The position numbers and the translations under genes are program-made. Positions 6,344 to 49,078 of a stretch of DNA of 51,031 bases are shown here, one piece after another (position 1 is the first letter of the stretch; each line of letters opens with the position of its first letter). Below the pieces are notes generated by a model. The model worked only from the letters and a program-made list of their open reading frames with translations. It was not told where the DNA came from and searched no databases. This stretch comes from Escherichia phage BEK7: sequence record MN158209.1; one strand, given 5' to 3'.

Positions 6344-6362
6344 GTTTAACAAAAAATGCTAT
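6344..6362 (-). promoter_or_regulatory. conserved element, atypical reversed copy inside structural operon
   Basis: Reverse complement GTTTAACAAAAAATGCTAT on + strand between capsid paralog B and major capsid gene; oriented against local transcription; lacks the usual 22-nt spacing to a -10. Confidence 0.3.
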
Positions 6363-6408
6363 CATTGTGGCGTTACATACTAACGACCTTTATATATGGA
6401 GGAAGAAA

Positions 6409-7383
6409 ATGGAAAAAGAAAAATTTGATCAGCTAGATGCGGATATTGTTTCTAGCTATCTGGCTACTCGCGGCGTTAAAGGTGATGCGTCCGATATGGG
6501 TATTTGGGCCGCTAAAGAACTGCATAAGATTCGCTCTGATGCTTACGAGAAAGAATATCCGGCAGGTTCTGCGCTTCGTGTATTCCCTGTAACTAATGAG
6601 CTTTCTGATACTGATAAGACTTTTGAATATCAGATGTTCGACAAGGTTGGTTACGCAAAAATTATCGCTGATTACACCGACGACCTGCCGACCGTTGACG
6701 CGCTGATGTCCAGCGAATTCGGTAAAGTTTTCCGCTTGGGTAACGCGTTCTTGATCTCAATTGACGAAATCAAGGCTGGTCAGCGTACTGGTAAGAGCCT
6801 TTCCACTCGCAAGGCAAACGCAGCGCAAAACGCCCATGATCAGGAAGTTAACCGCCTGGTGTTTAAGGGTTCAAAGCCGCATAAGATTCTTTCGGTGTTT
6901 GAACACCCTAACCTGACAAAGATTACATCTTCTGGCTGGTTAAGTCATGATGAAAACACTAAGTTCCCTCAAGCGGCATCTGATGAGCTGGAAAAGGCTA
7001 TTGAAACCATTCAGACCATTACCAATGGTCAGCACCGCGCAACCAATATCCTGATTCCGCCGTCTATGCGCAAGGTTCTTTCCGTTCGAATGGAAAACAC
7101 CACTGAAAGTTATCTGGAATACTTCCAGAAACAAAACAGCGGGATCACCATCGATTCAATCGCAGAACTCGAGGATATTGATGGCACTGGAACGAAAGGT
7201 TGCCTGGTATATGAGAAAGACCCGATGAACATGTCGATCGAAATTCCAGAAGCATTTAACATGCTTCCGGCGCAACCAAAAGATCTGCATTTCAAAGTTC
7301 CGTGTACTTCAAAATGTACTGGCCTGACGATTTACCGTCCGTTTACGCTAGTGCTTATTACTGGCTTGAAAAAATCAAGTTAA
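6409..7383 (+). CDS. major capsid protein
   Basis: About 325 aa from ATG after RBS GGAGGAAGAAA; position after scaffold; strong terminator hairpin downstream. Confidence 0.65.
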   Translation: MEKEKFDQLDADIVSSYLATRGVKGDASDMGIWAAKELHKIRSDAYEKEYPAGSALRVFPVTNELSDTDKTFEYQMFDKVGYAKIIADYTDDLPTVDALMSSEFGKVFRLGNAFLISIDEIKAGQRTGKSLSTRKANAAQNAHDQEVNRLVFKGSKPHKILSVFEHPNLTKITSSGWLSHDENTKFPQAASDELEKAIETIQTITNGQHRATNILIPPSMRKVLSVRMENTTESYLEYFQKQNSGITIDSIAELEDIDGTGTKGCLVYEKDPMNMSIEIPEAFNMLPAQPKDLHFKVPCTSKCTGLTIYRPFTLVLITGLKKSS

Positions 7384-7394
7384 TCGTATAGCAT

Positions 7395-7426
7395 TGGGGA
7401 ATCCTTAACTGGATTCCCTTTTTTAT
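7395..7426 (+). terminator. rho-independent terminator after major capsid gene
   Basis: GGGGAATCC-TTAACT-GGATTCCC then TTTTTT. Confidence 0.65.
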
Positions 7427-7439
7427 TGGAGGTTATGAA

Positions 7440-7712
7440 ATGGCTAAAGAAAAAACTGTAACGCTAAAGGTTTCCGGCGTGTGCCTTATCATTGTTGATG
7501 GTGAGCATTATCATCCAGGCAAAGAGTTTGACGTAGAAGAATCAAAATTGAAAACAAGCGCGTTTGAATATCTAATTGCAAAAGGCGATCTGGAGGTTAA
7601 AGACAACTCCGCATTGAACGAAGAAATCAAACAGAGCGCAGCAAGCAAACGTAAAAAAGACCCGCGAGAGGGCAAGAGCAAAGCCGAACTTGAAGACGGC
7701 GGCATCTATTAA
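7440..7712 (+). CDS. hypothetical protein
   Basis: 90-aa ORF between two terminator hairpins, RBS GGAGG upstream. Confidence 0.4.
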
Positions 7713-7713
7713 T

Positions 7714-7742
7714 AAAGAGGGCGCTTATAGCGCCCTCTTTCA
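7714..7742 (+). terminator. hairpin terminator
   Basis: AGAGGGCGC-TTAT-AGCGCCCTCT then TTT. Confidence 0.5.
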
Positions 7743-7759
7743 TATCTGGAGGAAACACA

Positions 7760-8176
7760 ATGGTTGATGAATTTTTCACTGACGCAGAAATCACGCAGCA
7801 AATCGTGAAATTAGCGCCACCGATGAAGCAGATTGATCCAGATTTAATGGTGGCATGGATTGAGCTTGCAAAGGAATTTGTTTGCAAGAAGCGGTTTAAA
7901 GAGTTATATCCTAAAGCGGTTGCTCTTTATACGTTGCACCTTATGACGCTTGATGGAGCCATGAAGCAAGAAGGGGAAAGCGTAGAAAGTTACTCGCGGC
8001 GAGTTGCGTCATTTTCCCTGACTGGTGAATTTAGCCAGACCTTTGATCGAGTGTCAGGCGACTCTGGCGGAAAAGATATTAGACAAACTCCCTGGGGGAA
8101 AATGTACGAAACGCTAAATCGTAAGAAAGGCGGTGGATTTGGTCTTGTGACTGGATTTAGGAGGCGTTGCAAATGA
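7760..8176 (+). CDS. head-tail connector protein (putative)
   Basis: 138-aa ORF with RBS GGAGGAAACACAATG; positional assignment. Confidence 0.4.
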
Positions 8177-8544
8177 ACTATAACGAGATCGCAAGAATGG
8201 CAACTGAAGGAATTAACTTCTTTAGTGATGGCAACGGTGAGTTTAAGTGCATAACGCAGCGTGGAAGCGTTGAAATCATCGGAGGAGAAGAAGTAGAAAA
8301 GCCAGAGATCAGTGTAATGATTAAGGGTTTAATTCGCTCCCCAAAAGTACGCGAGGTTGACGGAGAAACAATACGAGTAACCGATAAGTTGGGAGTTTTT
8401 AACAATAAAGTTGAAATTAAGAACGGGTATCATATTGATGTTGATGGTGAATTATATGCTGTAGTTGAAGCAAGACCAATCAGACAAACCAATGTCACTG
8501 TTGCTTATCGGCCTATTTTGAGAAGGATTTCTGTACATGGCTAA
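8173..8544 (+). CDS. head-tail joining protein (putative)
   Basis: ATG after AGGAGG; positional assignment. Confidence 0.4.
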
Positions 8545-8980
8545 AAACTACACGATAAGGGAATTTCACGGCAACATTGATGCGTGGATAAACGCCGTTG
8601 ATAGTGGATTAAAAGATTGCGTGGAGTTGTTCGCCGAAAAAGTACACACAGATTTGGTTAAGCGTTCTCCGGTTGATACTGGTCGTTATCGTGCAAACTG
8701 GCAGGTAACAGCAAACAAGCCGCCATTGTATGCGCTTAATCAGTACGATAAGCACGGAGACAAAACGATCGCGGAAGGAAAACGTGCCATATACGCAATA
8801 TTACGAGGTGGCGGCGCAGTAAGAGCTATTTATTTTTCCAACATGCTTATTTATGCTAACGCGCTTGAGTACGGTCATTCAAAACAAGCGCCAGCGGGTG
8901 TGCTTGGTATTGTTGCCGTGAAATTGCGTTCATATATGGCTGAAGCAATAAAAGAGTCGAGGGCTAAAAATGCACTATGA
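8537..8980 (+). CDS. neck / tail completion protein (putative)
   Basis: 147-aa ORF overlapping neighbours; positional. Confidence 0.4.
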   Translation: MAKNYTIREFHGNIDAWINAVDSGLKDCVELFAEKVHTDLVKRSPVDTGRYRANWQVTANKPPLYALNQYDKHGDKTIAEGKRAIYAILRGGGAVRAIYFSNMLIYANALEYGHSKQAPAGVLGIVAVKLRSYMAEAIKESRAKNAL

Positions 8981-9479
8981 TGATATATTCACATACAAAG
9001 ATGGACTTATTTACTGGAAGATTCAGATTAAAGATCAGTCAAAATGTAAGTATCCTTGTTCTGTTGGCGACGTAGCTGGAAATGTAAATAATCGCGGATA
9101 CGTTGTTGTTAATATGTTTGGCGGTCAGTTTAGGGTTCATCGCATAGTTTGGGAGATGCACAACGGGCCAATTCCTGACGGCATGGAGATTGACCATATT
9201 AATCACAACACAACTGACAACAGAATTGAGAATCTAAGGATTGTTGATAGATCTGGAAACATGAGAAACAAAACAATCGACAAAAGAAACTCAAGCGGAG
9301 TTACCGGTGTTTACTATCATCGAAAAAACAAGAAATGGTACGCTCAAATAATGCACAACAAAAAGAGGTTGCACTTAGGTTTCTTTGTTAGCTTTGATGA
9401 AGCTGCTAAAGCAAGAAAAGATGCAGAATTAAATTTTGGATACCACAAAAATCACGGAGTTCAACATGAGTCACTATGA
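8970..9479 (+). CDS. HNH homing endonuclease (HNH_3 + AP2-like domain)
   Basis: Motif HRIVWEMHNGPIPDGMEIDHINHNTTDNRIENLRIV plus C-terminal AP2-like segment; inserted within the structural operon. Confidence 0.85.
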   Translation: MHYDDIFTYKDGLIYWKIQIKDQSKCKYPCSVGDVAGNVNNRGYVVVNMFGGQFRVHRIVWEMHNGPIPDGMEIDHINHNTTDNRIENLRIVDRSGNMRNKTIDKRNSSGVTGVYYHRKNKKWYAQIMHNKKRLHLGFFVSFDEAAKARKDAELNFGYHKNHGVQHESL

Positions 9480-16700: not shown

Positions 16701-16745
16701 GCCCGTATAATTCAACAAATCAAATAGCACAAAAGGTGAAAAATA

Positions 16746-21516: not shown

Positions 21517-21571
21517 CTTCAATACTCCTTAGTTGTTGTTGGCTGTAACTATACACGATCCGGCAAGCCGA

Positions 21572-21591
21572 GTTTAGCAAAAAGTGCTATT
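21572..21591 (-). promoter_or_regulatory. conserved element upstream of Cor-like lipoprotein gene
   Basis: Minus-strand ATAGCACTTTTTGCTAAAC; TATAGT 21 nt downstream; about 60 nt before ATG at 21516. Confidence 0.45.
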
Positions 21592-22017: not shown

Positions 22018-23076
22018 ATGAGTGATTTTAACGCCTATACTAGCGAAGAAATGAGCAATGAGCTTTATCATGATCCTAACGCGTGGACGGCTGAATACGT
22101 CAGCGGTTCCAGCCTGGCTGAGATTTACAGCACTTGCCCGGCGTACTGGAAGTACAAGCCTCGCCAGGAAACCAAAGCACTTGTTTTCGGTACGCAGTCG
22201 CATACCAATTTTGAAAGCAAGGAGCTTTTCGAAAAAACCTATCGCCGTGCGCCAGCACCAGAAGACTTTAAGGATCTGATAACCAGCCAAACGGCGCTTG
22301 CTGCAAAGCTAAAATCATTTGGCCTGAAAGGTACAACAGGAAAGACTTACCCTGAACTTATAAAAATGTTGGTTGACTGCGGAGAAGACCTTAACGTCAT
22401 GTGGTTAATCGACATGATCGCAGAAAGTCAGGCGAGGGCCGATGGGGTTCAGTTAATCGAAGCTAAAGATTACGATGCTTGCGTGGCAATGCGACAGGTT
22501 CTGGAATCAATACCGGAACATAACGCATGCATGAATAGCAAGACAGCACAACGTGAATTATCGTTGTTCGGTGAAATTAACGGCGTAAAAGTCAAAGTGC
22601 GATGCGATCACGTTGACGTAACAAAGAACGTCACCGCAACGCTGATTGATGGTTACGATGAAAAAGGTCAGCCGATTTGCCGCGATATTATTTATCCAGA
22701 GGCCATTGTGATCACAGACTACAAAACTACAATGAGCGCGAATCCGGCTGAGTTTATGCGCCTGGCTTACAATCACGGCTATTATCTTAAAATGGCGTTG
22801 CAATGTGATTTATTCAGGAAAGCGTATCCAGAAGAAAAGCGACCTATAGTTGTGCGCCTGTTAGCGCAAGAGAAGAAAGAGCCTTATTTGCCGTTGGCTT
22901 TCCGCATGAACAACGAGCAATTGAAGATTGGGCGCATTCAGTACATGAGCGTGATTAACCAGTTTGCCATGTGCCAGCATCATGACGTTTGGCCTTCGTA
23001 TTCAAACGGTGAGCCGGAGGTTTGCCTTGATACTCCTGATTGGGTGCGACGCCAGTTTAAGCAATATCTTATTTAA
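22018..23076 (+). CDS. putative recombination exonuclease (PD-(D/E)XK-like)
   Basis: 352 aa, first gene of exo-SSAP-SSB arrangement; ITDYKTT resembles a D-x-K nuclease core; assignment tentative. Confidence 0.45.
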   Translation: MSDFNAYTSEEMSNELYHDPNAWTAEYVSGSSLAEIYSTCPAYWKYKPRQETKALVFGTQSHTNFESKELFEKTYRRAPAPEDFKDLITSQTALAAKLKSFGLKGTTGKTYPELIKMLVDCGEDLNVMWLIDMIAESQARADGVQLIEAKDYDACVAMRQVLESIPEHNACMNSKTAQRELSLFGEINGVKVKVRCDHVDVTKNVTATLIDGYDEKGQPICRDIIYPEAIVITDYKTTMSANPAEFMRLAYNHGYYLKMALQCDLFRKAYPEEKRPIVVRLLAQEKKEPYLPLAFRMNNEQLKIGRIQYMSVINQFAMCQHHDVWPSYSNGEPEVCLDTPDWVRRQFKQYLI

Positions 23077-23157
23077 ACAGCACAAATAGCTAAACAAATG
23101 AAAAATGCGGTGTTATAATTCACCGCATAAGTTAACAACAAGCGTAAGGAAATAAAC

Positions 23158-23436
23158 ATGGAAAACAAACAAGTTTCAGAGGTAGCAGTTCATATCAATA
23201 ATTTTGCAACTGGCATGGCTATGTTGCTTCGTGACTTTGTAGCGCCCCTTGACCCAACGGCAGGCGCAGAAGAAATGGAGTACATCAGAAAAGTAATGGA
23301 TGCAGTCGATAACGTCGTACTCATTGCAACAATGAGCGAAGACAACGAGGAAGCAATCAAGGCGGTAAAAGAAAGTTCTGATCGCATGATGGAAAATCTG
23401 ATTAAATTACACACCAAAGAAGAAACAAAACATTAA
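23158..23436 (+). CDS. hypothetical acidic protein
   Basis: 92 aa, Glu/Asp-rich; flanked by small hairpins. Confidence 0.4.
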   Translation: MENKQVSEVAVHINNFATGMAMLLRDFVAPLDPTAGAEEMEYIRKVMDAVDNVVLIATMSEDNEEAIKAVKESSDRMMENLIKLHTKEETKH

Positions 23437-28270: not shown

Positions 28271-28325
28271 ATGCACCTCAAACAAAAAAGCCTGACAGAT
28301 GATAACATCATGCCAGGCATTGTTT

Positions 28326-28799
28326 TTAGCAATTAGTGCTTTCAGGTTTATACAGGAATCCGCCAGGCTCATAATCTGACATTCTTACCACTCGCAACAT
28401 TTCACGCTTATCACATCTCTTTGTGAGCGGTTTGCCATTGGAATCAAATCGCAGGTCTGGACGACAGAATGATGCGCGATAGCCTTGACATCCATATTTT
28501 TTGTAATCGTTATGCACCTTTTGAGCGCCAGCAGCTGAAATCATACCGCGAACACGCCACTGATTTACAGTTTGCTGGCTAACGTTAAGACGTTTTGCCA
28601 TTGCTGATACACTTCCGTAATACTCAATAAGGATGTCAAGTCGCGCTTTTAGTCCGGCGCGCACTTCATCTTTTAAAACATAGTATCCTGTAGGGCGCTT
28701 GCGTTTCTTCTTATCCTTGCCTCGTCTGGTTCCGTTATTGCCATTAATTGTGCGCTTGTCAATCTTGCCAGTTGATACCGCGATTCGCTGTTCTTTCAT
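28326..28799 (-). CDS. HTH DNA-binding protein (putative transcriptional regulator)
   Basis: Lys/Arg-rich N-terminus and helix-turn-helix-like SVSAMAKRLNVSQQTVNQWRVRG; divergent from helicase gene. Confidence 0.5.
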   Translation of the reverse strand: MKEQRIAVSTGKIDKRTINGNNGTRRGKDKKKRKRPTGYYVLKDEVRAGLKARLDILIEYYGSVSAMAKRLNVSQQTVNQWRVRGMISAAGAQKVHNDYKKYGCQGYRASFCRPDLRFDSNGKPLTKRCDKREMLRVVRMSDYEPGGFLYKPESTNC

Positions 28800-28811: not shown

Positions 28812-28831
28812 AATAGCATTTTTTGTTAAAC
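28812..28831 (+). promoter_or_regulatory. conserved 21-nt promoter-like element (copy)
   Basis: AATAGCATTTTTTGTTAAAC; TATTAT 21 nt downstream; about 55-75 nt before helicase start. Confidence 0.5.
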
Positions 28832-28888
28832 GATGATTTAATGATTGTGTATTATACACGCCAAATGGCATTACTCAAAGGTTTTAGA

Positions 28889-30916: not shown

Positions 30917-31386
30917 TGAATTGGCATGATATTTTTTCATATGATAATGGTCGCCTTTTTTGGGCGACCAAAAGAGCAAACTGCATAAAAGTAGGTGACG
31001 AGGCAGGATTTTTACATCACCAAGGATACAGATTTGTTTGCATAAACGGGAAACAATTTGCAATCCATAGAATAGTATGGGAGATGCACTACGGAAAAAT
31101 ACCATATGGATATGAAATAGATCATATTAACGGCATAAGAGATGATAACCGCATAGAAAACTTGCGTCTGGTTATGAGAATCGACAACATGAAAAACAAA
31201 GCTACGTATAGGAATAACAAAAGCGGATTTGCTGGTGTTTCATGGGATAAAAGTAAGTCTAGATGGGTGGCAAAAATTGCAAACAAAAAACTAGGTGACT
31301 TCAAAAGCATAATTGATGCCGTGAATGCAAGAATAGTTGCAGAAGTTAGCTCAGGATTTCACAAAAATCACGGGAGGAAGCAGTGA
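30916..31386 (+). CDS. HNH homing endonuclease
   Basis: HRIVWEMHYGKIPYGYEIDHINGIRDDNRIENLRLV plus AP2-like C-terminus. Confidence 0.85.
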   Translation: MNWHDIFSYDNGRLFWATKRANCIKVGDEAGFLHHQGYRFVCINGKQFAIHRIVWEMHYGKIPYGYEIDHINGIRDDNRIENLRLVMRIDNMKNKATYRNNKSGFAGVSWDKSKSRWVAKIANKKLGDFKSIIDAVNARIVAEVSSGFHKNHGRKQ

Positions 31387-31799
31387 TAACTGATAAAGGC
31401 GATTATCTTGAGTTTTACGAAAGGGATCCAACCGACACGAGAAGGGAAGTTAATCACCAGATAGATAGTTTTCAGTGGTTGACTTATGCTCATCCTTATT
31501 TGCTGGCGTGGCATACGGTAAACGAGAATGAGAAGTCTAAAGCAACGGCGATGATTGATCAGCAGTCCGGTTTGGTTAAGGGAGTAAGCGATTTTATCAT
31601 CCTGATTGGTACAAAAGGCCGCTACCCGTTTGCGGCTATTGAGATGAAGCGCGTCAATAAGTCCGGAAAGGGAAAGGCTTCACCAGTCAGCAATGAGCAA
31701 AAAGCCTTCTTGCGACGTGTGCGTGAGATTGGCGGATTCGCCGCTGTAACATACGGATATAAGCAATTCATGATCGCTGTAGAATACATGATGAAATAG
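31383..31799 (+). CDS. VRR-NUC domain nuclease
   Basis: GVSDFIILIGTKGRYPFAAIEMKRVN...EQKAFL pattern (D...E.K) characteristic of VRR-NUC. Confidence 0.7.
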   Translation: MITDKGDYLEFYERDPTDTRREVNHQIDSFQWLTYAHPYLLAWHTVNENEKSKATAMIDQQSGLVKGVSDFIILIGTKGRYPFAAIEMKRVNKSGKGKASPVSNEQKAFLRRVREIGGFAAVTYGYKQFMIAVEYMMK

Positions 31800-31815
31800 C
31801 ACTTTTTGTTAAAAC
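31795..31815 (+). promoter_or_regulatory. conserved 21-nt promoter-like element (copy)
   Basis: AATAGCACTTTTTGTTAAAAC; TAG at 31797-31799 is the stop of the VRR-NUC ORF; CATAAT 22 nt downstream. Confidence 0.5.
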
Positions 31816-31873
31816 AGGCGCGAAGGATTTCGCCATAATAACAACAGTTCAACAAGCAACAGGTAATTAAGAA

Positions 31874-32579: not shown

Positions 32580-32837
32580 ATGCAGAAAGAAAGAAGAGTT
32601 TTACTTAATGAAGATGGCGAATTTCTTTTGTATCGCGCTATGGTATGCGATGCACTTGATAAAAACCCTAACGTGAAAAAGATGATTGATTGCGATCCGT
32701 GGGAATTTTCAAGCGCATTAGATATGAGCTTTGAGGAGACAAAAAAACTCCCACTTGAAAAATGGCACGAACAAATCAGAAATGACATGCAAGAATTTGT
32801 CGATTCGTGGAATTTTCAGAACGGAATGATCCACTAA
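32580..32837 (+). CDS. hypothetical protein
   Basis: 85-aa ORF; stop TAA immediately followed by the element's TAG. Confidence 0.4.
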   Translation: MQKERRVLLNEDGEFLLYRAMVCDALDKNPNVKKMIDCDPWEFSSALDMSFEETKKLPLEKWHEQIRNDMQEFVDSWNFQNGMIH

Positions 32838-32856
32838 TAGCACTTTTTGTTAAAAC
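32836..32856 (+). promoter_or_regulatory. conserved 21-nt promoter-like element (copy)
   Basis: AATAGCACTTTTTGTTAAAAC followed by hairpin GCCCGGC...CGGGC and ATAATT. Confidence 0.5.
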
Positions 32857-32912
32857 GCCCGGCCTTGTGTCGGGCATAATTATTTCAACGAAACAAACAT
32901 GAGGAAATAAAA

Positions 32913-33426: not shown

Positions 33427-34545
33427 ATGAGTCAAAGCAAGATAACCGACGAGCAATTCACGCATGAGCGATTAAAGGGTAAGAGCTATCGACAGATTGC
33501 TGAGGAATACGGCCTGAATGTTCGCAGCGTCGAGCGCCGAGCGGCACGACTGGCAAAGCAGGGAAAAATAACCACTGTAGGAACGCCTGGTTTTGGTGTT
33601 CACGGCGAATCGGTCATGACCGACAAAGAAGGTAACGTGATCCTCAAATGGACAAAGACCAGTAAGGACAAAGAGCAACTGGAAGCGTTGATGCGCGCAG
33701 CTATGGACGCTTTTACCGAAGAATTACCTCGTGTAGATCCGACACCAGAAGAAACAATAAAATACAGAGAAAGCCTTGCCCTTTACCCCGTTTTTGATAT
33801 GCACCTGGGAGCTATGGCGCACAAGCACGAATGCGGCGAGAATTGGGATACATCAACGGCAGAGAAGGTAATGAATGACTTTTTCGATTATGCTGTGGCC
33901 TGCGCCCCGTTCAGCGAGAAAGCAGTGCTGCTGATTGGCGGCGACATGCTTCACAGTGACGGCCTGGAAGCGGTAACTCCTGCAAGCGGTCACGTATTGG
34001 ATCAAGATAGCCGATACGCAAAATTAGTTTACGTTGCAATTCGTGCCGTCCGTCGAGCCATTGAGTTGATGCTCAAAAAACACAAAGAAGTCGAGATCCA
34101 GATAATTGAGGGCAACCATGACCAAAGCGGCATGATCTGGTTACGTGCAGCTATGGCGGCGGCATATGAAAAAGAGCCTCGCGTTTACGTTGATGTATCG
34201 CCGCGAGTGGTTCACCATACGCAGTACGGAAAAACATTCCTTGCATATCATCACGGTCACACCGTCCGAAAGCCGGAAACATTGCTAATGATGTGCGCAG
34301 CAGACTGGCGGGAGGACTTTGGAAACTCAAAAACTATGTATGCGCACGTAGGGCATTTTCATCATCAGACTGTAACAGAAACATCGCTAGGCATTGTTGA
34401 AGTACATAGCACGATGGCAGCTAAAGACGCATACGCCGCGCGAGGCGGTTGGCGTTCCCGTCGCCGTGCTGCGGTTATCATTTACGACAAAGAACACGGC
34501 GAAATCGGACGCTTTATGTTTTATCCTGAAATGGCAGATAAATAA
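33427..34545 (+). CDS. calcineurin-like metallophosphoesterase with N-terminal HTH domain
   Basis: Phosphoesterase motifs DMH, GGDMLHSDG, EGNHD and His-rich HVGHFHH; N-terminal HTH-like YRQIAEEYGLNVRSVERR. Confidence 0.6.
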   Translation: MSQSKITDEQFTHERLKGKSYRQIAEEYGLNVRSVERRAARLAKQGKITTVGTPGFGVHGESVMTDKEGNVILKWTKTSKDKEQLEALMRAAMDAFTEELPRVDPTPEETIKYRESLALYPVFDMHLGAMAHKHECGENWDTSTAEKVMNDFFDYAVACAPFSEKAVLLIGGDMLHSDGLEAVTPASGHVLDQDSRYAKLVYVAIRAVRRAIELMLKKHKEVEIQIIEGNHDQSGMIWLRAAMAAAYEKEPRVYVDVSPRVVHHTQYGKTFLAYHHGHTVRKPETLLMMCAADWREDFGNSKTMYAHVGHFHHQTVTETSLGIVEVHSTMAAKDAYAARGGWRSRRRAAVIIYDKEHGEIGRFMFYPEMADK

Positions 34546-36214: not shown

Positions 36215-36601
36215 CTAAATGAATACTCTTACCTTTATCATATATGGTTGCATGCCATTTCTTTCTTTCTTCCTCCAGCACACTCCAACCCTACCAGATT
36301 TATTTCTTTTTAGTAGAGATACGTTTTTGCTGTTCTCTAATCTTGATGCAAGCCTTAAATTTTCAATCCTGTTATCCAACCTATTGTGCCATATATGATC
36401 TATCTCCATTCCTTCTGGTATTTTTCCATTGTGCATTTCCCATATTATTCTATGAGCCAAAAGCAATACACCATTATACCTTATTCTTACATAGCCATTT
36501 TTATCTACACATCCAGCAACGATTCCTGGCTTTGCTTTTCCCCTTCTGTTTCTCCATCTCAATATTCCATTGTCATATATAAATATTTTATTCCAATCCA
36601 T
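36215..36601 (-). CDS. HNH homing endonuclease
   Basis: HRIIWEMHNGKIPEGMEIDHIWHNRLDNRIENLRLA. Confidence 0.85.
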   Translation of the reverse strand: MDWNKIFIYDNGILRWRNRRGKAKPGIVAGCVDKNGYVRIRYNGVLLLAHRIIWEMHNGKIPEGMEIDHIWHNRLDNRIENLRLASRLENSKNVSLLKRNKSGRVGVCWRKKERNGMQPYMIKVRVFI

Positions 36602-38566: not shown

Positions 38567-38619
38567 TGGTGATAACTCCTTTTTGATGCGGCAATAATAC
38601 CGCACCAATGCTACCCGCA

Positions 38620-38638
38620 TTTAACAAAAAATGCTATT
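38620..38638 (-). promoter_or_regulatory. conserved 21-nt promoter-like element (copy)
   Basis: Minus-strand AATAGCATTTTTTGTTAAA; its TAG is the stop of ORF 38634-38897; TATTAT 22 nt downstream. Confidence 0.5.
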
Positions 38639-38897
38639 TGATCCGCTCTATGCTAACTAAGATTTTTTCTGGTTCCTTTGCACTATGGAAATGCGCGGTT
38701 ACAGAATCAACAAAATCAAAGTAAAGTGATTTGTGATATGAGAATCCAATCAGCCAACCTACCGCCGTTTTTTTGATGGGCCTGACTATATCGCCAGGCT
38801 TGAAGGTTTTTGTTGCTGAATAAGTCACCTTATAGCGATATTCAGTCTTGATCATGAGACTTCTCTTTTCCGTGGTTTTCGTGGAAACCATGCTCAA
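38634..38897 (-). CDS. hypothetical protein
   Basis: 87-aa ORF. Confidence 0.35.
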   Translation of the reverse strand: MSMVSTKTTEKRSLMIKTEYRYKVTYSATKTFKPGDIVRPIKKTAVGWLIGFSYHKSLYFDFVDSVTAHFHSAKEPEKILVSIERIK

Positions 38898-39360
38898 TCA
38901 ACAACCTATCTATTGCTGATATAGCCGACTCAATACATGTGTGCCATCCACCATAAATCAATCTACCATCAACCTTTACATTAACCTTGTACTTCCCCCT
39001 ATTTTCGTACCAGATAATTCCTATATGACCGATTGTATTGTTAGATCGCATGGATAAATTTCGTCCGTTTATCGACCTTGTAACCAATCTCAAGTTTTCT
39101 ATCCTGTTATCAGTTCTGTCATGGTTTATGTGATCAATTTCCATTCCTTGAGGAATATCTCCGTTGTGCATAATCCAAACAACCCTGTGAGCATAAATTT
39201 GTACACCTTCTACAGTTAGCTTTACATACCCTTTGCTGTTTACGGTTCCAGCCTCAAGACTGCGTTTTCTACCCTTTCTCCACTCCTTCCAGTAAAGAAT
39301 ACCGTCGTCGTATCTTAGTTGGCTTAGAAGTATTTCGCTTGAAATTTTGCAGTTGCACAT
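38842..39360 (-). CDS. HNH homing endonuclease
   Basis: HRVVWIMHNGDIPQGMEIDHINHDRTDNRIENLRLV. Confidence 0.85.
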   Translation of the reverse strand: MCNCKISSEILLSQLRYDDGILYWKEWRKGRKRSLEAGTVNSKGYVKLTVEGVQIYAHRVVWIMHNGDIPQGMEIDHINHDRTDNRIENLRLVTRSINGRNLSMRSNNTIGHIGIIWYENRGKYKVNVKVDGRLIYGGWHTCIESAISAIDRLLIEHGFHENHGKEKSHDQD

Positions 39361-39707: not shown

Positions 39708-39762
39708 CGTTTATTTCTCCTTTCGTTTCGGTGAAGTGATTATGCCAGGTTTTTACACCTGG

Positions 39763-39783
39763 CTTTTAACAAAAAGTGCTATT
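39763..39783 (-). promoter_or_regulatory. conserved 21-nt promoter-like element (copy)
   Basis: Minus-strand AATAGCACTTTTTGTTAAAAG; TAG is the stop of ORF 39779-40465; hairpin CCAGGT...ACCTGG then CATAAT. Confidence 0.5.
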
Positions 39784-40856: not shown

Positions 40857-41123
40857 TCAGACAGCCTTCCAGCTTTCAATGAACATGCTGTTCTCTTCAA
40901 GAAGTTTAATCAATTCTTCGCGAGTATATTTGCGAATTTTACTACCAGGATGCGAGCCAACAACAAACACACCTTTACCGCTTGTGATTGTTAACTGGTT
41001 GATTCCACAAGATTGATCAATTTTCACAGCGACGCGGTGATGTGCATCAACAGTGTGCATGATGTTAGTTACTTTAGCTTTCATTGCGCGATCCTCATTA
41101 TATTTGGTTTGGTAACTATACAA
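40857..41123 (-). CDS. hypothetical protein
   Basis: ORF in track. Confidence 0.35.
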   Translation of the reverse strand: MYSYQTKYNEDRAMKAKVTNIMHTVDAHHRVAVKIDQSCGINQLTITSGKGVFVVGSHPGSKIRKYTREELIKLLEENSMFIESWKAV

Positions 41124-41258
41124 GGTTTAAGAAATATTGTTTAGCAATTCGTGATATCAGTTGAAATGGCTATGGCGTTTTGCTCGCTTTCCGTCTCCGC
41201 CATAATGATCATTAGAAACAGCAATCATCCAGGAATTATGGAATATTATTAGCTTCAT

Positions 41259-41537
41259 CTAATTAATACCAACCAAGTTAAAACTTACATTTTTTGTTGA
41301 GAATACATACGCCTCAACAGCGCCGCCAAATACGCGAATTTTCCCATGTCCGTACTGCGTATTCATATTGCGCCAAACCGTTATATTAGAACAGAACGCG
41401 CTACCAGTCTTAATGAGATTATCCATTTCTCTTCTTAGATCACGATAATCAAGCCAGAATCTATAAGCGCGTTGTTTAATTCGCGCCGACTTGATTATCT
41501 CGATTGCGCTATTGAAATCATTCTTTTCATATGCCAT
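41259..41537 (-). CDS. hypothetical protein
   Basis: ORF in track. Confidence 0.35.
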   Translation of the reverse strand: MAYEKNDFNSAIEIIKSARIKQRAYRFWLDYRDLRREMDNLIKTGSAFCSNITVWRNMNTQYGHGKIRVFGGAVEAYVFSTKNVSFNLVGIN

Positions 41538-41734
41538 TAGATGATCTCCATATAGGTTTCAAAGCCAGTCAACTTGAACAAGCCGTTTTCACATTTTCGC
41601 ACGTTCCAAGTCAGCCCTGAGTGGTACGCCTCCATATCATCAAGATCAATGGTGATTTCAACGCCTTTCTTAAATAATCCTTTTTCGTGAGATTTGTCGC
41701 GCTTAACCACTTTAACATCAACCTGTGTTTCCAT
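41537..41734 (-). CDS. hypothetical protein
   Basis: Start moved to ATG (METQVDV); about 68 nt downstream of an element copy. Confidence 0.35.
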   Translation of the reverse strand: METQVDVKVVKRDKSHEKGLFKKGVEITIDLDDMEAYHSGLTWNVRKCENGLFKLTGFETYMEII

Positions 41735-41791
41735 TTTCAAATCCTCGCATTCGTTGTCGATGCGCTTAATATACCAATCAGAGGCGCATCG

Positions 41792-41812
41792 GTTTTAACA
41801 AAAAGTGCTATT
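41792..41812 (-). promoter_or_regulatory. conserved 21-nt promoter-like element (copy)
   Basis: Minus-strand AATAGCACTTTTTGTTAAAAC; TATATT lies in the loop of hairpin GATGCGC...GCGCATC. Confidence 0.5.
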
Positions 41813-42606: not shown

Positions 42607-42664
42607 TGCTATCTCCTGAGCGTTTCGTTTCGATGTGTGTAATGTACCCGATCAGGCGGATTCA

Positions 42665-42685
42665 GTTTTAACAAAAAGTGCTATT
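42665..42685 (-). promoter_or_regulatory. conserved 21-nt promoter-like element (copy)
   Basis: Minus-strand AATAGCACTTTTTGTTAAAAC; TACATT 22 nt downstream. Confidence 0.5.
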
Positions 42686-42949
42686 TGCCGACTGGTTATT
42701 ATTCCATCTATTCCATTAATCAGGAATAACAGGAATAACTCATTCGCGATCACCTGGATTGTGAGACTTTGAGTTTGATCAATTTTAATCAGTTGATTAA
42801 CTTTTTGTGCGGAGGGGATAGAGAAACACGGTCCTCTCGCATCCTTTCCGGCAATCCTGGCGAGCAATTCTGTTTCTTTCGTTCCCGTTGTTATGCCAAA
42901 TAGCCCTCCGCAACTGGCGATAACAGAAATCGCGTTGACATAACAAAAA

Positions 42950-43145
42950 AAACAAATATAAATATATATATATACCCATAAAATCAATAAGTTAGTTATA
43001 TATATAATTATAACTGTTATCTGTTGTTATCCTTGTTTCATGGGTATATTGGTAGGTGGTATTGTTTTTGTGAATATGTATGTGTGATTGTATGTTTTTT
43101 AATCAATGGTGATATGTGGTGATTTTGTATGTATATATGTATGGG
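42950..43145. repeat. AT-rich divergent control region, copy B
   Basis: Shares ATAAAATCAATA, TGTTATCTGT, GGTGATTTT, GTATGTATAT blocks with 21661-21850. Confidence 0.6.
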
Positions 43146-43276
43146 GGAGTGGCAATCCTCCGTCAACCAGCTAAACAAGCCAATATTTTCAAGTTAAAAC
43201 AATGACTTAAGCTGTGTCATTTGTTATCAGGCAACAGCATTTTGATAAAAAATGCAGCCAAAACAGAGAAAACATA

Positions 43277-43305
43277 TTGACACCACCAGGCTGCATGGTC
43301 ATAAT
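43277..43305 (+). promoter_or_regulatory. sigma70-like promoter (TTGACA-17-CATAAT)
   Basis: -35 TTGACA 43277-43282, 17-nt spacer, -10 CATAAT 43300-43305, about 40 nt before ATG 43345. Confidence 0.6.
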
Positions 43306-43863: not shown

Positions 43864-44104
43864 GATTGATATTGATAAAGCCGCAAAACAAGTTGTTAGT
43901 GCGCTTGGTGGCAAGAAGTACACGAAAGAGGATGTGGAAAAAATACTGGACACGGCTAGGGACTTGATGATTCACGATGCCGTGCTTTCTTCTGGAGAGT
44001 GGCAAAAAACGTATCCGGCATCTTCCGAGGATATGATGAAAGCTATCAGAATCCTAGTAAATCACAGGGATAGCTTTAGCGTTACTTTCACTGACCGGAA
44101 ATAG
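43847..44104 (+). CDS. hypothetical protein
   Basis: 85-aa ORF; stop TAG is inside the next element copy. Confidence 0.4.
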   Translation: MATMNKIDIDKAAKQVVSALGGKKYTKEDVEKILDTARDLMIHDAVLSSGEWQKTYPASSEDMMKAIRILVNHRDSFSVTFTDRK

Positions 44105-44120
44105 CACTTTTTGTTAAAAC
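44100..44120 (+). promoter_or_regulatory. conserved 21-nt promoter-like element (copy)
   Basis: AATAGCACTTTTTGTTAAAAC; CATAAT 22 nt downstream. Confidence 0.5.
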
Positions 44121-44198
44121 TCGAAAACGATAACCAGGCATAATAAATCACATAGGGCGGCACGGCGTCGACCACAAAACCAATCAGGAGAAAGCACC

Positions 44199-45148: not shown

Positions 45149-45169
45149 AATAGCACGAATTGTTAAAAC
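45149..45169 (+). promoter_or_regulatory. conserved element, GAA-variant copy
   Basis: AATAGCACGAATTGTTAAAAC followed by hairpin GGGCCA-TGTATAA-TGGCCC with TATAAT in the loop. Confidence 0.5.
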
Positions 45170-45221
45170 TCAAATGTGGGGCCATGTATAATGGCCCTAC
45201 TTTCAACGAAGGAGACAAAAG

Positions 45222-45660: not shown

Positions 45661-45671
45661 TAGGTTTGATA

Positions 45672-46214
45672 ATGAAAAAATACGAATTTGAACTTTGGGG
45701 CAGCAAATACCATTTTTCCACGAGCAAGCCGATTGTTATCGTTGACCTGGACGGAACGTTATCAGACGGAACGCATCGCTTGCACCTGCTTCCGACAGAA
45801 GATTTGCACCTTACAGAAAGCTGGTCTGAGTTCAATAAGGCGGCTGTTGGCGATTCGCCGATTAAGAGCACGGTTGCAGTGGTTAACGGTTTGTGGATGT
45901 CGGGATTTGCCATCGTTATCCTGACCGGACGTAGCGATGAAGTGATGGAGGACACCTGCAAATGGCTTAACGAAAACAGCATCAAGTACGATGCGTTAAT
46001 CATGCGCCGCAAGGAAGACAACCGCAAAGACACAATCATCAAAGAAGAAGTCTTGCGCGCTATCGGACTGGAAAACATTGTGTGCGCTTTTGATGATTCG
46101 CCGAACGTGGTTAAGCACTTCCGAAGCCTGGGAATCACAACCTATCAGGTCACGGAATACGACAAGCCACATAATCATATCCAATCGCATGGCGTGGAGG
46201 AGTTGCAGAAATGA
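45672..46214 (+). CDS. HAD-family phosphatase (polynucleotide 3'-phosphatase / nucleotidase-like)
   Basis: HAD motif I IVIVDLDGTLSDG, motif II ILTGRS, motif IV FDDSP. Confidence 0.6.
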   Translation: MKKYEFELWGSKYHFSTSKPIVIVDLDGTLSDGTHRLHLLPTEDLHLTESWSEFNKAAVGDSPIKSTVAVVNGLWMSGFAIVILTGRSDEVMEDTCKWLNENSIKYDALIMRRKEDNRKDTIIKEEVLRAIGLENIVCAFDDSPNVVKHFRSLGITTYQVTEYDKPHNHIQSHGVEELQK

Positions 46215-46420
46215 TCCTGAATGTAGCATATGCTAACCCTCGCGGCCGCAATATATTCGGCTTTAAGGTTGGCGCGATGGTCAACGCCAGGATAAACGAA
46301 AAAGGCGTATTAGTTGTCAAGTCTCCTAAAACTGGCGTGGATATGCACATCAAGGAGAACGGCGGAAGATTGTTTATCAGGTCAATGTCTGGTCAAACGC
46401 TCGCAACGTTCACCAAATAG
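46211..46420 (+). CDS. hypothetical protein
   Basis: 69-aa ORF; stop TAG inside the next element copy. Confidence 0.35.
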   Translation: MILNVAYANPRGRNIFGFKVGAMVNARINEKGVLVVKSPKTGVDMHIKENGGRLFIRSMSGQTLATFTK

Positions 46421-46437
46421 CACGAATTGCAAAAAAC
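46416..46437 (+). promoter_or_regulatory. conserved element, GAA-variant copy
   Basis: AATAGCACGAATTGCAAAAAAC then hairpin GGGCTT...AAGCCC containing TATAGT. Confidence 0.45.
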
Positions 46438-46492
46438 AGATCATCGGGCTTGCTGTATAGTAAGCCCATCAACAACAAACGAGGATTAAATC

Positions 46493-46756
46493 ATGGCTAA
46501 CAAGATCGAGTTTTTTAAAGCTGTAGACATTATCGACGGCACGCCTAGCTTCTTTGCTATACATTCTATTGACGGAAAGGACATTGGTTACAATGTTATC
46601 CGTCGTGATGGAATCTCAAAACTTAGTAACCTGGTAGGCCATATTGTGTCAAACGGGAAATGCACATGGCCCGATTCGCCACGAGATCCACGCCGCCGCG
46701 ACATGGTAGAGCCTGTTCTGCTTTACACTCTGGTAATTGAAGGGGAAAACAAATGA
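46493..46756 (+). CDS. hypothetical protein
   Basis: 87-aa ORF, RBS GAGGA. Confidence 0.4.
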   Translation: MANKIEFFKAVDIIDGTPSFFAIHSIDGKDIGYNVIRRDGISKLSNLVGHIVSNGKCTWPDSPRDPRRRDMVEPVLLYTLVIEGENK

Positions 46757-46938
46757 TCTATGCACTTGTATTTTTAGTTATTTTCTTTTATATTTCAGGA
46801 TTATTCATCTTCCGCGCATTGGTTAAAGTGTGTGATTGCACTGATAAAGATCAGCCTCTTGTTCTGGTGTTCTGGTTTGTGTGGTTTTGGGTGGCGCTTT
46901 ACCAGATTGTACTGGATGAAAGCGGCTTTAAGTGGTGA
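46753..46938 (+). CDS. hypothetical small membrane protein
   Basis: 61 aa with two hydrophobic segments. Confidence 0.35.
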   Translation: MIYALVFLVIFFYISGLFIFRALVKVCDCTDKDQPLVLVFWFVWFWVALYQIVLDESGFKW

Positions 46939-47132
46939 TTCTTGCTATAGCGCATTCATGCAGTGCGCTATATTGAGATAACAACAGGAGATTATGAAGA
47001 TGCGAAGCGTCGAAAAAATCGTATCCAAGAAGAAGCGATACAGCTACTACGAGCACCAAGAGATGAATCAACGCTATCGCAATAAGCGCAAGCGACCAGG
47101 CAAACATTCAAGCAGATATGGAGACAACTAAT

Positions 47133-47723
47133 ATGAAGCGCGACATTATCATCCTTAACGGACCGCCAGGGGTTGGAAAAGATACGCTTGCGGCATACTT
47201 AACGGGCCATCGTTACGCAGCCGTTGAAGCGTCGTTTAAACAGCCTATGTTTGATATTGCGTTTTCCATGCTTGGTGTTTACCGATATGACGAGTTCATT
47301 GATCTGTATAATGACCGCGAGCAGAAAGAAAAGCCTCAAGCAATCTTGCAAGGCAAGTCGCCTCGCCAGTTCATGATCTGGATTAGCGAAGAAGTTATGA
47401 AGCCAGCTTTTGGCGAGCAATATTTCGGAAATCGCATGGTTGAGCAAGTACACGAGATGTACGGAGATTTAGCTGTTGTAATTAGTGATGGCGGATTCCC
47501 TGAAGAAATCAAGCCGCTAGTTAAGGCAGGCCATGAAGTTCACATTTGCAGACTGCATCGCGAAGGCTTCACGTTTGATGGCGATTCACGAAACTATATT
47601 GACCTGAACGGATACCATCACCGAGTAAAACATTACGACTTCACAATGATTGATGGCGATCCAGAAAAGACTATTGACGAGATCATCAAAACGGTCCAGT
47701 GGAAACACATTAAGATCAAATAG
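47133..47723 (+). CDS. P-loop nucleotide / polynucleotide kinase-like protein
   Basis: Walker A ILNGPPGVGKDT (GKDT variant as in phage dNMP kinases); 196 aa. Confidence 0.55.
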   Translation: MKRDIIILNGPPGVGKDTLAAYLTGHRYAAVEASFKQPMFDIAFSMLGVYRYDEFIDLYNDREQKEKPQAILQGKSPRQFMIWISEEVMKPAFGEQYFGNRMVEQVHEMYGDLAVVISDGGFPEEIKPLVKAGHEVHICRLHREGFTFDGDSRNYIDLNGYHHRVKHYDFTMIDGDPEKTIDEIIKTVQWKHIKIK

Positions 47724-47740
47724 CACGAATTGCTAAAAGC
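47719..47740 (+). promoter_or_regulatory. conserved element, GAA-variant copy
   Basis: AATAGCACGAATTGCTAAAAGC; TAG is the kinase stop; TATAAT 22 nt downstream. Confidence 0.45.
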
Positions 47741-47793
47741 GGGGCGCAATGCCTCGCTATAATGCAAACACTAATCAACGAGAGGAAATCATC

Positions 47794-48195
47794 ATGGTAG
47801 AGTTAAACGACATTCGCGTTGGAACAAAATTTCGCGTAACCTGGGCAGATGAATATTGCGGCGTTAGCAGGGGTCAGGTTGTTACGGTGGATAGTATTTA
47901 TCGCGGGTGTAGCAAAGACTTTCGCCGACCACGCATCAAGAATGGCTATATCATAACTCGCCGTTTTGGCTTTGAGCATTATTACGTAGTGGCGACTCAA
48001 GGAGTTTTGATTGAGCTTCAGCGAATCAGCGATCATCGCGGCTGTCATGTCAAAACAACGAAGATACCATCTCAGCGATCGCGATACGATGCGCGCAGGA
48101 TGCGCAGGATTGCACGAAACGCGATCAAGTTCAAAAAGCATGGTGGTAACTTTTACCGAATGTACAAAGGGATTGCGCGAAATGCTGGAAAATAA
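47794..48195 (+). CDS. hypothetical basic protein
   Basis: ATG after GAGAGGA; Arg/Lys-rich C-terminus. Confidence 0.4.
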   Translation: MVELNDIRVGTKFRVTWADEYCGVSRGQVVTVDSIYRGCSKDFRRPRIKNGYIITRRFGFEHYYVVATQGVLIELQRISDHRGCHVKTTKIPSQRSRYDARRMRRIARNAIKFKKHGGNFYRMYKGIARNAGK

Positions 48196-48291
48196 CAAAT
48201 CAACCAATCCAAAGCCGACATTTGATTTTCATGAAATCATGACTGTGTTATTCTTGATTCTCTTAGTTGTTTATTCAGTGAGGGCAGCAAT

Positions 48292-48555
48292 ATGGTTTTT
48301 AATGCACTAAAACGAATCTTTAAACCTGAATACCGGATTGTTTCTTGCACAGAATGCAAGATTTATTACCTGCAACTCCGCCGCGTTATTAGTGGCGATT
48401 GGGAATATCTGACGAATGATGCTTTCGGCTTTTGGGCTATGAAGTTCAATAGCTACAGCGAAGCGCGTGAATACGCTAAAAAGTTGCACAAGTTCCGACC
48501 TTACAAGCTGCGTTTGCTGGTTGTCAAAAAATGCGATGTGTTGGATCACGAATGA
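48292..48555 (+). CDS. hypothetical protein
   Basis: 87-aa ORF. Confidence 0.35.
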   Translation: MVFNALKRIFKPEYRIVSCTECKIYYLQLRRVISGDWEYLTNDAFGFWAMKFNSYSEAREYAKKLHKFRPYKLRLLVVKKCDVLDHE

Positions 48556-48771
48556 AAAGAGTAATTGTCATTTTTATTGCCATTATCGCTGGTTCTCACT
48601 TGGCCTATGAGTATAGCGGCATTGTTGAGTCAATAGGCGGAATGATTATATTCCTGGCTGGCGCATATTACGGCTACGGCGATGGATTTTAAAATGGCAA
48701 GCGTTACATCCTGACTGGTAAGAAATAATGTTTAACCGCGCCGCTTCTGTGGCGCTAAAAGGAGGAAACAA

Positions 48772-49059
48772 ATGGCTAAAAGCAATCGTAAGATGTTGAT
48801 TAACGCATTCGAAAAGGCAGCGCTTGAGCGTGGTTGGAATGACTCATTTCACACAGCAAACTGTATCCGACGTTACGGATTCAAGAATTGCCGCTCATGG
48901 GCGCGTCAAATGGCTTCATGGTATGATCTTGATGCGCATTACCTTGATATGGATTGCGCCCTTGTTGAAATGATTGAGCAGGCCGCACTAGAGGATCGAC
49001 CATTAACGCAATCTGATTTTGACGATTTTGTGCGCGATGAAATCTATTACATGAGCTAA
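48772..49059 (+). CDS. hypothetical protein
   Basis: 95-aa ORF with RBS AAGGAGG; TAA stop followed in frame by the element's TAG. Confidence 0.4.
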   Translation: MAKSNRKMLINAFEKAALERGWNDSFHTANCIRRYGFKNCRSWARQMASWYDLDAHYLDMDCALVEMIEQAALEDRPLTQSDFDDFVRDEIYYMS

Positions 49060-49078
49060 TAGCACTTTTTGTTAAAAC
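49058..49078 (+). promoter_or_regulatory. conserved 21-nt promoter-like element (copy)
   Basis: AATAGCACTTTTTGTTAAAAC; imperfect hairpin then TAAAGT; about 75 nt before GTG start 49135. Confidence 0.45.

Follow-up and report, generated by a model that had tools for sequence, protein, structure and literature searches.

Escherichia phage BEK7 (MN158209.1) was analysed over a window of 51,031 nt, which is its complete genome and has 100% identity to Escherichia phages BEC3 (MN158217) and BEK1-23 (MN158211); the name BEC3 in our comparisons denotes the genome analysed here. The phage is T1-like and virulent, a siphovirus of the genus Hanrivervirus (Drexlerviridae, Tempevirinae). The small terminase gene starts at position 1, and the structural operon occupies 1-20.3 kb, rightward. 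The recombination, replication, methylase and lysis genes lie at 20.3-36 kb, and small genes form two divergent arms, one going leftward from ~42.7 kb and the other rightward from ~43.3 kb to the end of the stretch. An initial annotation, made from the sequence by eye, had described a 21-nt element recurring across this genome as the mark of a phage-specific, promoter-like class. We find strong support, in its sequence, orientation and spacing, for identifying this element as the consensus marbox, a 20-bp asymmetric site that is bound by monomers of the AraC-family proteins MarA, SoxS and Rob (RamA in Klebsiella and Salmonella).

The degenerate pattern of the initial annotation gave 11 exact matches and 19 with up to three mismatches, compared to 0.00 and 0.34 in dinucleotide shuffles, in keeping with the enrichment that it had predicted. 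All 14 copies that it had counted are present. The plus-strand starts are exact, while three of the minus-strand starts had to be shifted by 1-2 nt; as 21-mers, these copies occupy 6343-6363, 21571-21591 and 38618-38638. Three further promoter-associated copies were found at 28323-28343 (-), 41138-41158 (-) and 23076-23096 (+), and two decayed ones at 2086-2106 (+) and 16723-16743 (+). The element marks about 16 promoters in this genome. Its promoter-associated copies are aligned with the next gene in 16 of 16 cases, the GCAC end being distal, as they are in the five other genomes that we compared; the thirteen listed copies said to be co-oriented with their genes are indeed so. The -10-like hexamer, placed 21-23 nt downstream, was likewise found at that distance past TTGYTA, which corresponds to 17-19 nt past the last base of the element. 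The modules are given below, each with its box, the box-to-hexamer spacing and the hexamer.

21548..21591, minus strand: promoter module, box AATAGCACTTTTTGCTAAACT, 17 nt, TATAGT; serves three small genes (21516->20353)
23076..23119, plus strand: 'A-group' module, degenerate box AACAGCACAAATAGCTAAACA with 0 mismatches to AYNGCACNNWNNRYYAAAYN, 17 nt, TGT-TATAAT; the downstream genes are 23158-23436 and the recombinase gene
28299..28343, minus strand: primase module, box GAAAGCACTAATTGCTAAAAA, 18 nt, TATCAT; primase gene 28270->27338; the core of the box, GCACTAATTGCTAAA, is 15/15 to the consensus marbox and lies within a terminator-like hairpin
28812..28855, plus strand: helicase promoter, box AATAGCATTTTTTGTTAAACG, 17 nt, TATTAT
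31795..31839, plus strand: Dam methylase promoter, box, 18 nt, CATAAT; the TAG of the box is the stop codon of 31383-31799
32836..32880, plus strand: module, box, 18 nt (GC hairpin GCCCGGC/GTCGGGC), CATAAT
38594..38638, minus strand: putative-helicase module, box AATAGCATTTTTTGTTAAATG, 18 nt, TATTAT; 527-aa putative helicase 38566->36983
39739..39783, minus strand: module, box, 18 nt (hairpin CCAGGT/ACCTGG), CATAAT
41115..41158, minus strand: module, box GATATCACGAATTGCTAAACA, 17 nt, TATAGT; absent from the earlier list
41768..41812, minus strand: module, box, 18 nt, TATATT; the -10 is enclosed by the hairpin CGATGCGC/GCGCATCG
42641..42685, minus strand: first promoter of the leftward early arm, box, 18 nt, TACATT
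44100..44144, plus strand: module, box, 18 nt, CATAAT
45149..45192, plus strand: 'G-group' module, box AATAGCACGAATTGTTAAAAC, 17 nt, TATAAT
46416..46461, plus strand: 'G-group' module, box, 19 nt, TATAGT
47719..47763, plus strand: 'G-group' module, box core 14/15 to the consensus marbox, 18 nt, TATAAT
49058..49102, plus strand: module, box, 18 nt, TAAAGT

Two features of the adjoining genes are of note. The stop codon of the upstream gene is the TAG or TAA within the AATAG of nine of the 16 promoter boxes (31797-31799, 44102-44104, 46418-46420, 47721-47723 and, on the minus strand, 38634-38636 and 39779-39781 are among them), and at these boxes the end of one gene is fused to the promoter of the next. 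For the gene after the 47719 box, the annotated start at 47749 falls in the promoter spacer, upstream of the predicted transcription start; the in-frame ATG at 47794, which follows GAGAGGAAATCATC, is likelier to be the better start codon and gives a product 15 codons shorter.

A weight matrix built from the BEC3 copies was run on T1, TLS, Rtp, JakobBernoulli and the Klebsiella Webervirus NJR15, and it detected 17-24 copies per genome. Conservation at syntenic positions in related phages, an expectation of the initial annotation, was seen at the helicase and Dam promoters, where the flanks diverge and the box is invariant. A scan of IMG/VR returned multi-copy clusters solely on contigs of ~33-53 kb, the size of T1-like genomes, with single matches on other contigs; it gave no evidence of the element in other phage groups. 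The 2024 re-annotation of TLS described a 21-nt direct repeat, aaATAGCACnnnTTGnTAAAA, in 21 places, lying along transcription ~76 nt before start codons and falling into T, G and A groups by its central triplet; it was 'also found in T1, Rtp and Rogue1' and its function was left open (PMC11447400). The same authors reported no more than three sigma70-like promoters and no gene for a sigma factor or RNA polymerase, and they suggested that the repeats are stoperators, enhancer-binding sites or UP elements (PMC11447400). The repeat of TLS, T1, Rtp and Rogue1 is the same element as the one described here, with the same orientation and subgroups. The BEK7 copies fit it in sequence, in being many, intergenic and directed along transcription, and in their distance from the next start codon, which is 71-98 nt when measured from the A of ATAGCAC. 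Unlike the present analysis, the TLS paper notes neither the -10 spacing nor the marbox identity (PMC11447400). The repeat as such was in print beforehand for TLS and T1; what appears to be new, as far as the searched literature shows, is its recognition as a marbox.

Read from its second base, the element (ATAGCAC-TTT-TTG-(C/T)TAAAAC) has the layout of the marbox. The marbox derived from chromatin immunoprecipitation (ChIP) of MarA is 5'-gcannwwntgnnaaa-3' (PMC12052159). This string, GCANNWWNTGNNAAA, has 16 exact matches in the genome, compared to 1.72 +/- 1.2 in 100 shuffles, and 15 of the 16 are copies of the element (all 14 that had been reported and the one at 28325 (-)). The majority consensus of the marbox is gcactaattgctaaa (PMC5684230). 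It is matched at 15/15 positions at 28325-28339 (-) and at 14/15 at 47723, and each of the six genomes holds 2-7 copies that match it at 14/15 or better, with 0.005 expected for this genome. A 20-mer form of the marbox, AYnGCACnnWnnRYYAAAYn, was reportedly given by Martin et al. in 1999; 18 sites lie within one mismatch of it, with 1.37 expected. The positions that vary among the phage copies (8, 9, 10, 14, 19 and 20) coincide with those that are degenerate (n, W or Y) in the marbox. Positions 9-10 are always A or T, and position 14 is always C or T (C 49, T 47). When the weight matrix of the phage copies was applied to E. coli K-12, the micF robbox and the marRAB marbox were the top matches of their regions, and the marRAB box is identical to the phage consensus at 16/20 positions. 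The matrix misses the host fumC, inaA, nfo, sodA and fpr sites; it is too specific for degenerate host sites, and the published consensus strings were therefore used instead.

Other sites were compared by eye with their consensus sequences. The Bacteroidetes-type promoter, sigma54, sigma32/28/24, CRP, FNR, IHF, Fis, Lrp and DnaA offered no joint fit of sequence and spacing, and an Lrp-like match of 12/15 was dropped because the marbox match is exact. The sigma54 consensus is GG-N10-GC (TGGCAC-N5-TTGCW) at -24/-12, with no TATAAT; the TAGCAC-N3-TTGC of the element is 2 bp too short for it, has AG and not GG, and stands at a fixed distance from a sigma70 -10.

The anatomy of the promoters was derived from 114 sites in six T1-like genomes (four lineages), of which 104 have a good -10-like hexamer and 97 have it at a spacing of 17-19 nt. 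The box-to-hexamer spacing is exactly 18 nt in 81 of the 104 and 17-19 nt in the 97, whereas random positions give a flat distribution. The hexamers are TATAGT, CATAAT, TATTAT or TATAAT; all 97 have A as their second base and T as their sixth. G is present at -14 in 76/97 sites (78%) and T at -15 in 39/97, and a full TG extended -10 is possible in fewer than half. A C-A step lies 6-7 nt past the hexamer in 78% of sites. Beyond it come an A/C-rich leader with the consensus CATCGAAACGA, then a Shine-Dalgarno sequence and the start codon. The fixed distance to the hexamer, the C-A context, the Shine-Dalgarno sequence and the start codon support the proposal that the element defines a class of promoters. 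Also supported are its division of the non-structural genes into many short units and its essential absence from the structural operon. Matches to TTGACA at the expected -35 position average 1.79 of 6, and the TTG of the element does lie, as had been noted, about 5 bp too far upstream for a sigma70 -35. In a consensus promoter scan, sigma70-type sites were rarer than in shuffles in all three thirds of the genome. The box modules look like sigma70-like promoters with a -10 and without a -35.

The A/C-rich leader, (C)ATCGAAACGA, begins at the predicted transcription start, ~6-20 nt past the hexamers (for example 42622-42634 (-) and 41749-41761 (-)). It also follows the box-free promoter at 43277 and is for this reason taken to be independent of the box. 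The stretch from box to start site tends to fold: z is below -2 in 64% of the 97 sites (mean z -2.7; six genomes). The G+C-rich stems are either wholly inside the 18-bp spacer or hold the -10 in their loop, as at 32857-32875, 39745-39763, 45175-45199 and 41768-41792. Their sequences vary between sites, and between phages at one site, with the pairing kept. Some of the spacer hairpins are recorded as rho-independent terminators in the T1 record, the U-tract being missing in most. The hairpins may serve in ending or stabilising upstream transcripts. A reading of the motif as an extended -10 (TGnTAAAA), with the hexamer as a lambda PR'-like sigma-dependent pause, was rejected because the C-A step, Shine-Dalgarno sequence and start codon keep phase with the hexamer, and also because no terminator lies downstream for an antiterminator to act on.

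Class II promoters of the MarA family carry a forward marbox over the -35, with its centre at -36 to -55 (PMC12052159, PMC10268841). In the class II MarA/SoxS/RamA promoters of Salmonella, the sites cluster near -41, the -10 is canonical and the -35 matches on average 1.9 of 6 (PMC10268841). The phage promoters have these traits: a box of the marbox consensus, always forward relative to transcription, which overlaps the -35 position, is centred near -41 at a fixed distance from the -10, and precedes a sigma70 -10 and start without a -35. Given an 18-bp spacing and the start predicted here, the phage box extends from -50 to -31, which places G4 at -47 and A6 at -45. The cryo-electron microscopy structure of Rob with RNA polymerase at micF has Rob in contact with bases at -47 and -45, the B site (CAAA) overlapping the -35, and sigma region 4 displaced (PMC9178005). 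In E. coli (NC_000913.3), by our measurement, the -10-like hexamer lies 18 bp from the best forward marbox at micF, inaA, nfo and sodA (4/4), fumC being ambiguous. The E. coli and Salmonella class II promoters (micF, inaA, nfo, sodA; lpxC, lpxL, rfaY) share with the phage the same asymmetric box, GCAC ... TG ... YTAAA, forward and at about -41, 18 bp from a sigma70 -10, without a recognisable -35 and with a canonical start context. The host boxes are degenerate (typically at least two mismatches), whereas those of the phage are near-perfect and number ~16-20 in 50 kb. The phage spacer usually carries a G+C-rich hairpin; none is evident in the micF spacer, the one host promoter examined in this respect. 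The element thus has the sequence of the host marbox in a class II configuration, and the description of the class as phage-specific was not sustained.

The two decayed copies differ from this arrangement. The copy at 2086-2106 (+), AATAGCACGAATCGACAAACC, lies after the large terminase gene, with a TATAAT only 4 nt on and then a strong terminator, and is outside the class II geometry. The partial copy at 16723-16743 (+), AATAGCACAAAAGGTGAAAAA, abuts the start codon of a J-like tail gene and is kept in JakobBernoulli and TLS; by its geometry it is no promoter.

Three promoter-like sites stand apart from the box modules.

43277..43305, plus strand: box-free sigma70 promoter, TTGACA-17-CATAAT, of the first rightward gene (DUF7174)
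28851..28878, minus strand: box-free sigma70-like promoter, TTGAGT-16-TATAAT, of the Cro-like regulator gene; the 28812 box lies in its 5' leader
6338..6365, plus strand: predicted capsid promoter-like site, TTGCAC-16-TATCAT, before the major capsid gene (6409)

The 43277 promoter is likely to be immediate-early and independent of an activator. Its DUF7174 product, with only 18-36% identity between subfamilies, was rejected as a candidate for the conserved factor. At the second site, the -10 of the regulator overlaps that of the helicase promoter base for base on the opposite strand, in the palindromic GTGTATTATACAC (28850-28856), and this overlap recurs in T1, TLS, NJR15 and Rtp. Since the -10 is shared, RNA polymerase could occupy only one of the two promoters at a time, and they should compete.

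At the capsid site lies the reversed box (6343-6363, minus strand), the sole copy in reverse orientation, which the initial annotation had set aside as an exception. It is more than that: the 16-bp spacer of a conserved promoter-like site is taken up by it, as is the beginning of the -10. The relatives have TTGACG-16-TATTAT (T1), TTGAAC-16-TATATT (TLS) and TTGACG-16-TATTCT (NJR15) at this place, their -35 hexamers being the better ones, and the match to the -35 is 3 of 6 in BEC3 and 5 of 6 in T1. A protein bound to the reversed box would occlude the capsid promoter, and the arrangement suggests that one factor may switch the early units on and keep the capsid promoter off. The MarA-repressed pbpG promoter has its marbox in the promoter spacer (PMC12052159). 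The reversed phage box in the spacer and -10 of the capsid site is placed alike, although, unlike pbpG, the capsid promoter is predicted only. Further MarA-repressed promoters with the marbox in the core are rob, purA and hdeA.

We consider it reasonably likely, from the sequence features described above, that the element marks class II promoters of the MarA/SoxS/Rob type that are activated by the host. Host sigma70 RNA polymerase alone would be expected to use the box promoters poorly, as they have no -35. A host marbox protein would supply the missing contact: Rob, which would be constitutively present, or MarA, SoxS or RamA under stress. It would bind GCAC (~-47 to -44) and YTAAA (~-37 to -33) and touch the C-terminal domain of the alpha subunit and sigma region 4. 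In this manner ~16 short transcription units of early and replication genes would be driven, the few box-free canonical promoters (43277 and that of the regulator, 28878) would work without the marbox protein, and the capsid promoter, with the box backwards in its core, would be occluded by the same protein.

The initial annotation had proposed an operator for a phage-encoded factor, and for this we find no support. The phage showed no gene of the AraC family and none for a sigma or MotA-like protein. When MarA, SoxS and the N-domain of Rob were used as tblastn and phmmer queries on the six phage genomes (the MarA query having been checked against the K-12 gene), no credible homologue came up; a phage-encoded MarA-like protein was rejected, the sole match being of 38 aa (E=0.02) and antisense to annotated genes. 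Among 30 non-structural proteins scanned with Pfam, a set that takes in about half of the small open reading frames, no sigma, AraC, MotA-like or AsiA-like domain was present. The motifs that ChIP gave for MarA, SoxS, Rob and RamA are 'nearly indistinguishable' (PMC10268841). The hosts listed for Drexlerviridae are all Enterobacterales, except in records labelled Campylobacter and Vibrio. The near identity of these motifs, the Enterobacterales hosts and the lack of a phage homologue together favour activation by the host MarA/SoxS/Rob family. The invariant one-sided AAA, the single orientation and the even split between C and T at position 14 further argue for a monomeric reader with two helix-turn-helix (HTH) motifs over a symmetric dimer.

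Several points weigh against host activation. The class II status of inaA, nfo and sodA is presumed, and the 20-mer AYnGCACnnWnnRYYAAAYn is the form reportedly given by Martin et al. 1999; for micF the status is taken from PMC9178005. Unstressed cells contain little MarA or SoxS, and in standard growth Rob is largely sequestered or aggregated (PMC5684230, PMC10268841), which is awkward for a fast lytic phage that thrives in plain broth. Our literature search gave no evidence from binding, start sites or genetics for any T1-like phage, no published link of these phages to Rob, MarA or SoxS, and no transcriptome or start-site map of any of them. At box position 3 the phage has an almost invariant A, where the marbox has an 'n'; the use of TAG as a stop codon (9/16) may explain it, or it may reflect the constraint of another binder. 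A partial dyad, TAGCA-N5-TGCTA, is present in about half of the copies and would suit a dimeric HTH protein, and a Cro-like regulator is kept family-wide beside a box.

The last two points bear on a different explanation, which we hold to be unlikely: that a phage-encoded activator binds the box, the likeness to the marbox being convergence or competition with host factors. The candidates are a 372-aa phosphoesterase (33427-34545) and the following regulator.

28326..28799, minus strand: Cro-like HTH 'transcriptional regulator', phrog_2856, counterpart of T1 gp23

The regulator has a single Cro-type HTH, with matches to PDB 5w8y and 3bd1, and is present in ~840 of ~866 Drexlerviridae records. 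Its box-free sigma70 promoter could allow it to be made first, and its leader contains a box. The phosphoesterase ('DNA repair exonuclease', phrog_704) has an N-terminal HTH like sigma70 region 4, with a Sigma70_r4_2 score of 22.9 bits, below the Pfam cut-off, and a recognition helix that is fairly conserved in five phages. A phage activator would perhaps use the TAGCA-N5-TGCTA dyad near -42, perfect in its 5+5 form in about half of the boxes, and activate as lambda cI does at PRM. The regulator, which the initial annotation had singled out as the possible factor, fares poorly on its recognition helix, which ranks with the most variable stretches of the protein: among 116 homologues, residue 75 has an entropy of 3.6 bits and residues 77, 79, 80, 82 and 83 have 2.1-2.8 bits, and the helix is also variable in the five-way alignment, yet the box is identical from T1 to the Klebsiella phages. 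A symmetric dimer leaves the asymmetric features (the invariant AAA and the strict single orientation) unexplained, and the division of position 14 between C (49) and T (47) suits the 'Y' of the marbox and not a dyad. A phage activator also gives no reason for the exact 18-bp agreement with the host class II promoters. The phage middle promoters of T4 offer a comparison, in that there too a box replaces the -35 before a normal -10 in a temporal class, through MotA and AsiA ('sigma appropriation'). The MotA box differs in its sequence (TGCTTtA), is centred at -30, lies 11-13 bp from the -10 and depends on phage MotA and AsiA. Membership in the T4-type class was rejected, as the spacing here is 18 bp, the sequence is different and the 30 scanned proteins (about half of the small open reading frames included) hold no MotA- or AsiA-like domain.

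It is more doubtful still that no activator is involved, that is, that host sigma70 RNA polymerase makes use of a good -10 and the box is a substitute in cis for the -35 or an UP element. The hexamers are near consensus, G is at -14 in 76/97 sites and the 3' half of the box is A/T-rich. The UP consensus is nnAAAWWTWTTTTnnnAAAnnn, at -59 to -38 and upstream of a functional -35. The best-conserved bases of the box are GCAC and TTG, which are invariant, and not A/T tracts; the box occupies -50 to -31 with no -35 after it (the match being 1.8 of 6). An UP element was therefore rejected, although 'UP enhancer elements' are among the options of the TLS authors (PMC11447400). T at -15 in only 39/97 sites leaves a full TG extended -10 to fewer than half, and the chance of matching the site of a specific host activator at 15/15 and at 14 positions, at the right distance, is very small.

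The idea that the element is a repressor site or 'stoperator' that shuts off early transcription units, raised by the TLS authors (PMC11447400), seems highly improbable: the sites are intergenic and along transcription, and the reversed copy in the core of the capsid promoter resembles an operator, but the phage is virulent with no annotated repressor or integrase, the promoters have no -35 without an activator, and the sites stand at a fixed distance before the -10 in place of the -35, whereas stoperators sit inside transcribed DNA. The stoperators of mycobacteriophage L5 are similar in being many, asymmetric, intergenic and oriented with transcription; they belong to a temperate phage with its own repressor and lie within transcribed DNA, unlike the promoter-proximal, -10-locked sites of this virulent family, and membership in the L5 type was rejected on these grounds.

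Returning to activation by host marbox proteins, a wider scheme can be drawn, to which we assign little probability. Across the Drexlerviridae, the early and replication genes would depend on host MarA, SoxS, Rob or RamA by way of ~16-20 near-perfect class II marboxes per genome, the capsid promoter would be occluded, and replication would titrate the activator, giving an early-to-late timer without a phage regulator. If this is true, thousands of replicated high-affinity boxes would titrate the activator, the early units would go down and the capsid promoter would be freed. Bile, salicylate, oxidants and the mutations of clinical multidrug-resistant strains, as conditions and changes that raise MarA, RamA, SoxS or Rob, would then turn cells into better hosts for T1-like phages. 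These phages rank with the commonest of coliphages and of Klebsiella phages, and therapy collections make use of them; to our knowledge, they encode no RNA polymerase or sigma factor and have almost no canonical promoters. Marbox promoters, if confirmed, would give a 20-year-old 'repeat of unknown function' a concrete, testable mechanism and would couple phage expression to the multidrug-resistance regulators MarA, RamA, SoxS and Rob. They would predict phage-antibiotic interactions and better growth on resistant mutants, and would provide, as tools, a set of very strong natural marboxes. If a phage factor binds instead, the element would still define a regulon of the family.

With regard to hosts, the Campylobacter and Vibrio labels of MG0656xx ('Campylobacter phage A16a, A120 ...') and MT360682 ('Vibrio phage Vc1') look doubtful, as these records have 89-95% identity to the present coliphage or the same boxes and geometry. 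Between the divergent early arms, ~580 bp (42690-43270) are non-coding and hold TATATA runs and TGTATG-type repeats, the central part (~42940-43140) being A/T-rich; the T1 record has its ends at the corresponding place, which may be a packaging or replication-origin region. Four HNH homing-endonuclease genes (8970-9479, 30916-31386, 36215-36601 and 38842-39360) are inserted in the structural and replication modules, none at an equivalent place in JakobBernoulli. The 65-aa early protein at 41537-41734 (-) matches Pfam PF25180, 'Phage antiviral trigger protein Gp54', with an E-value of 5e-38.

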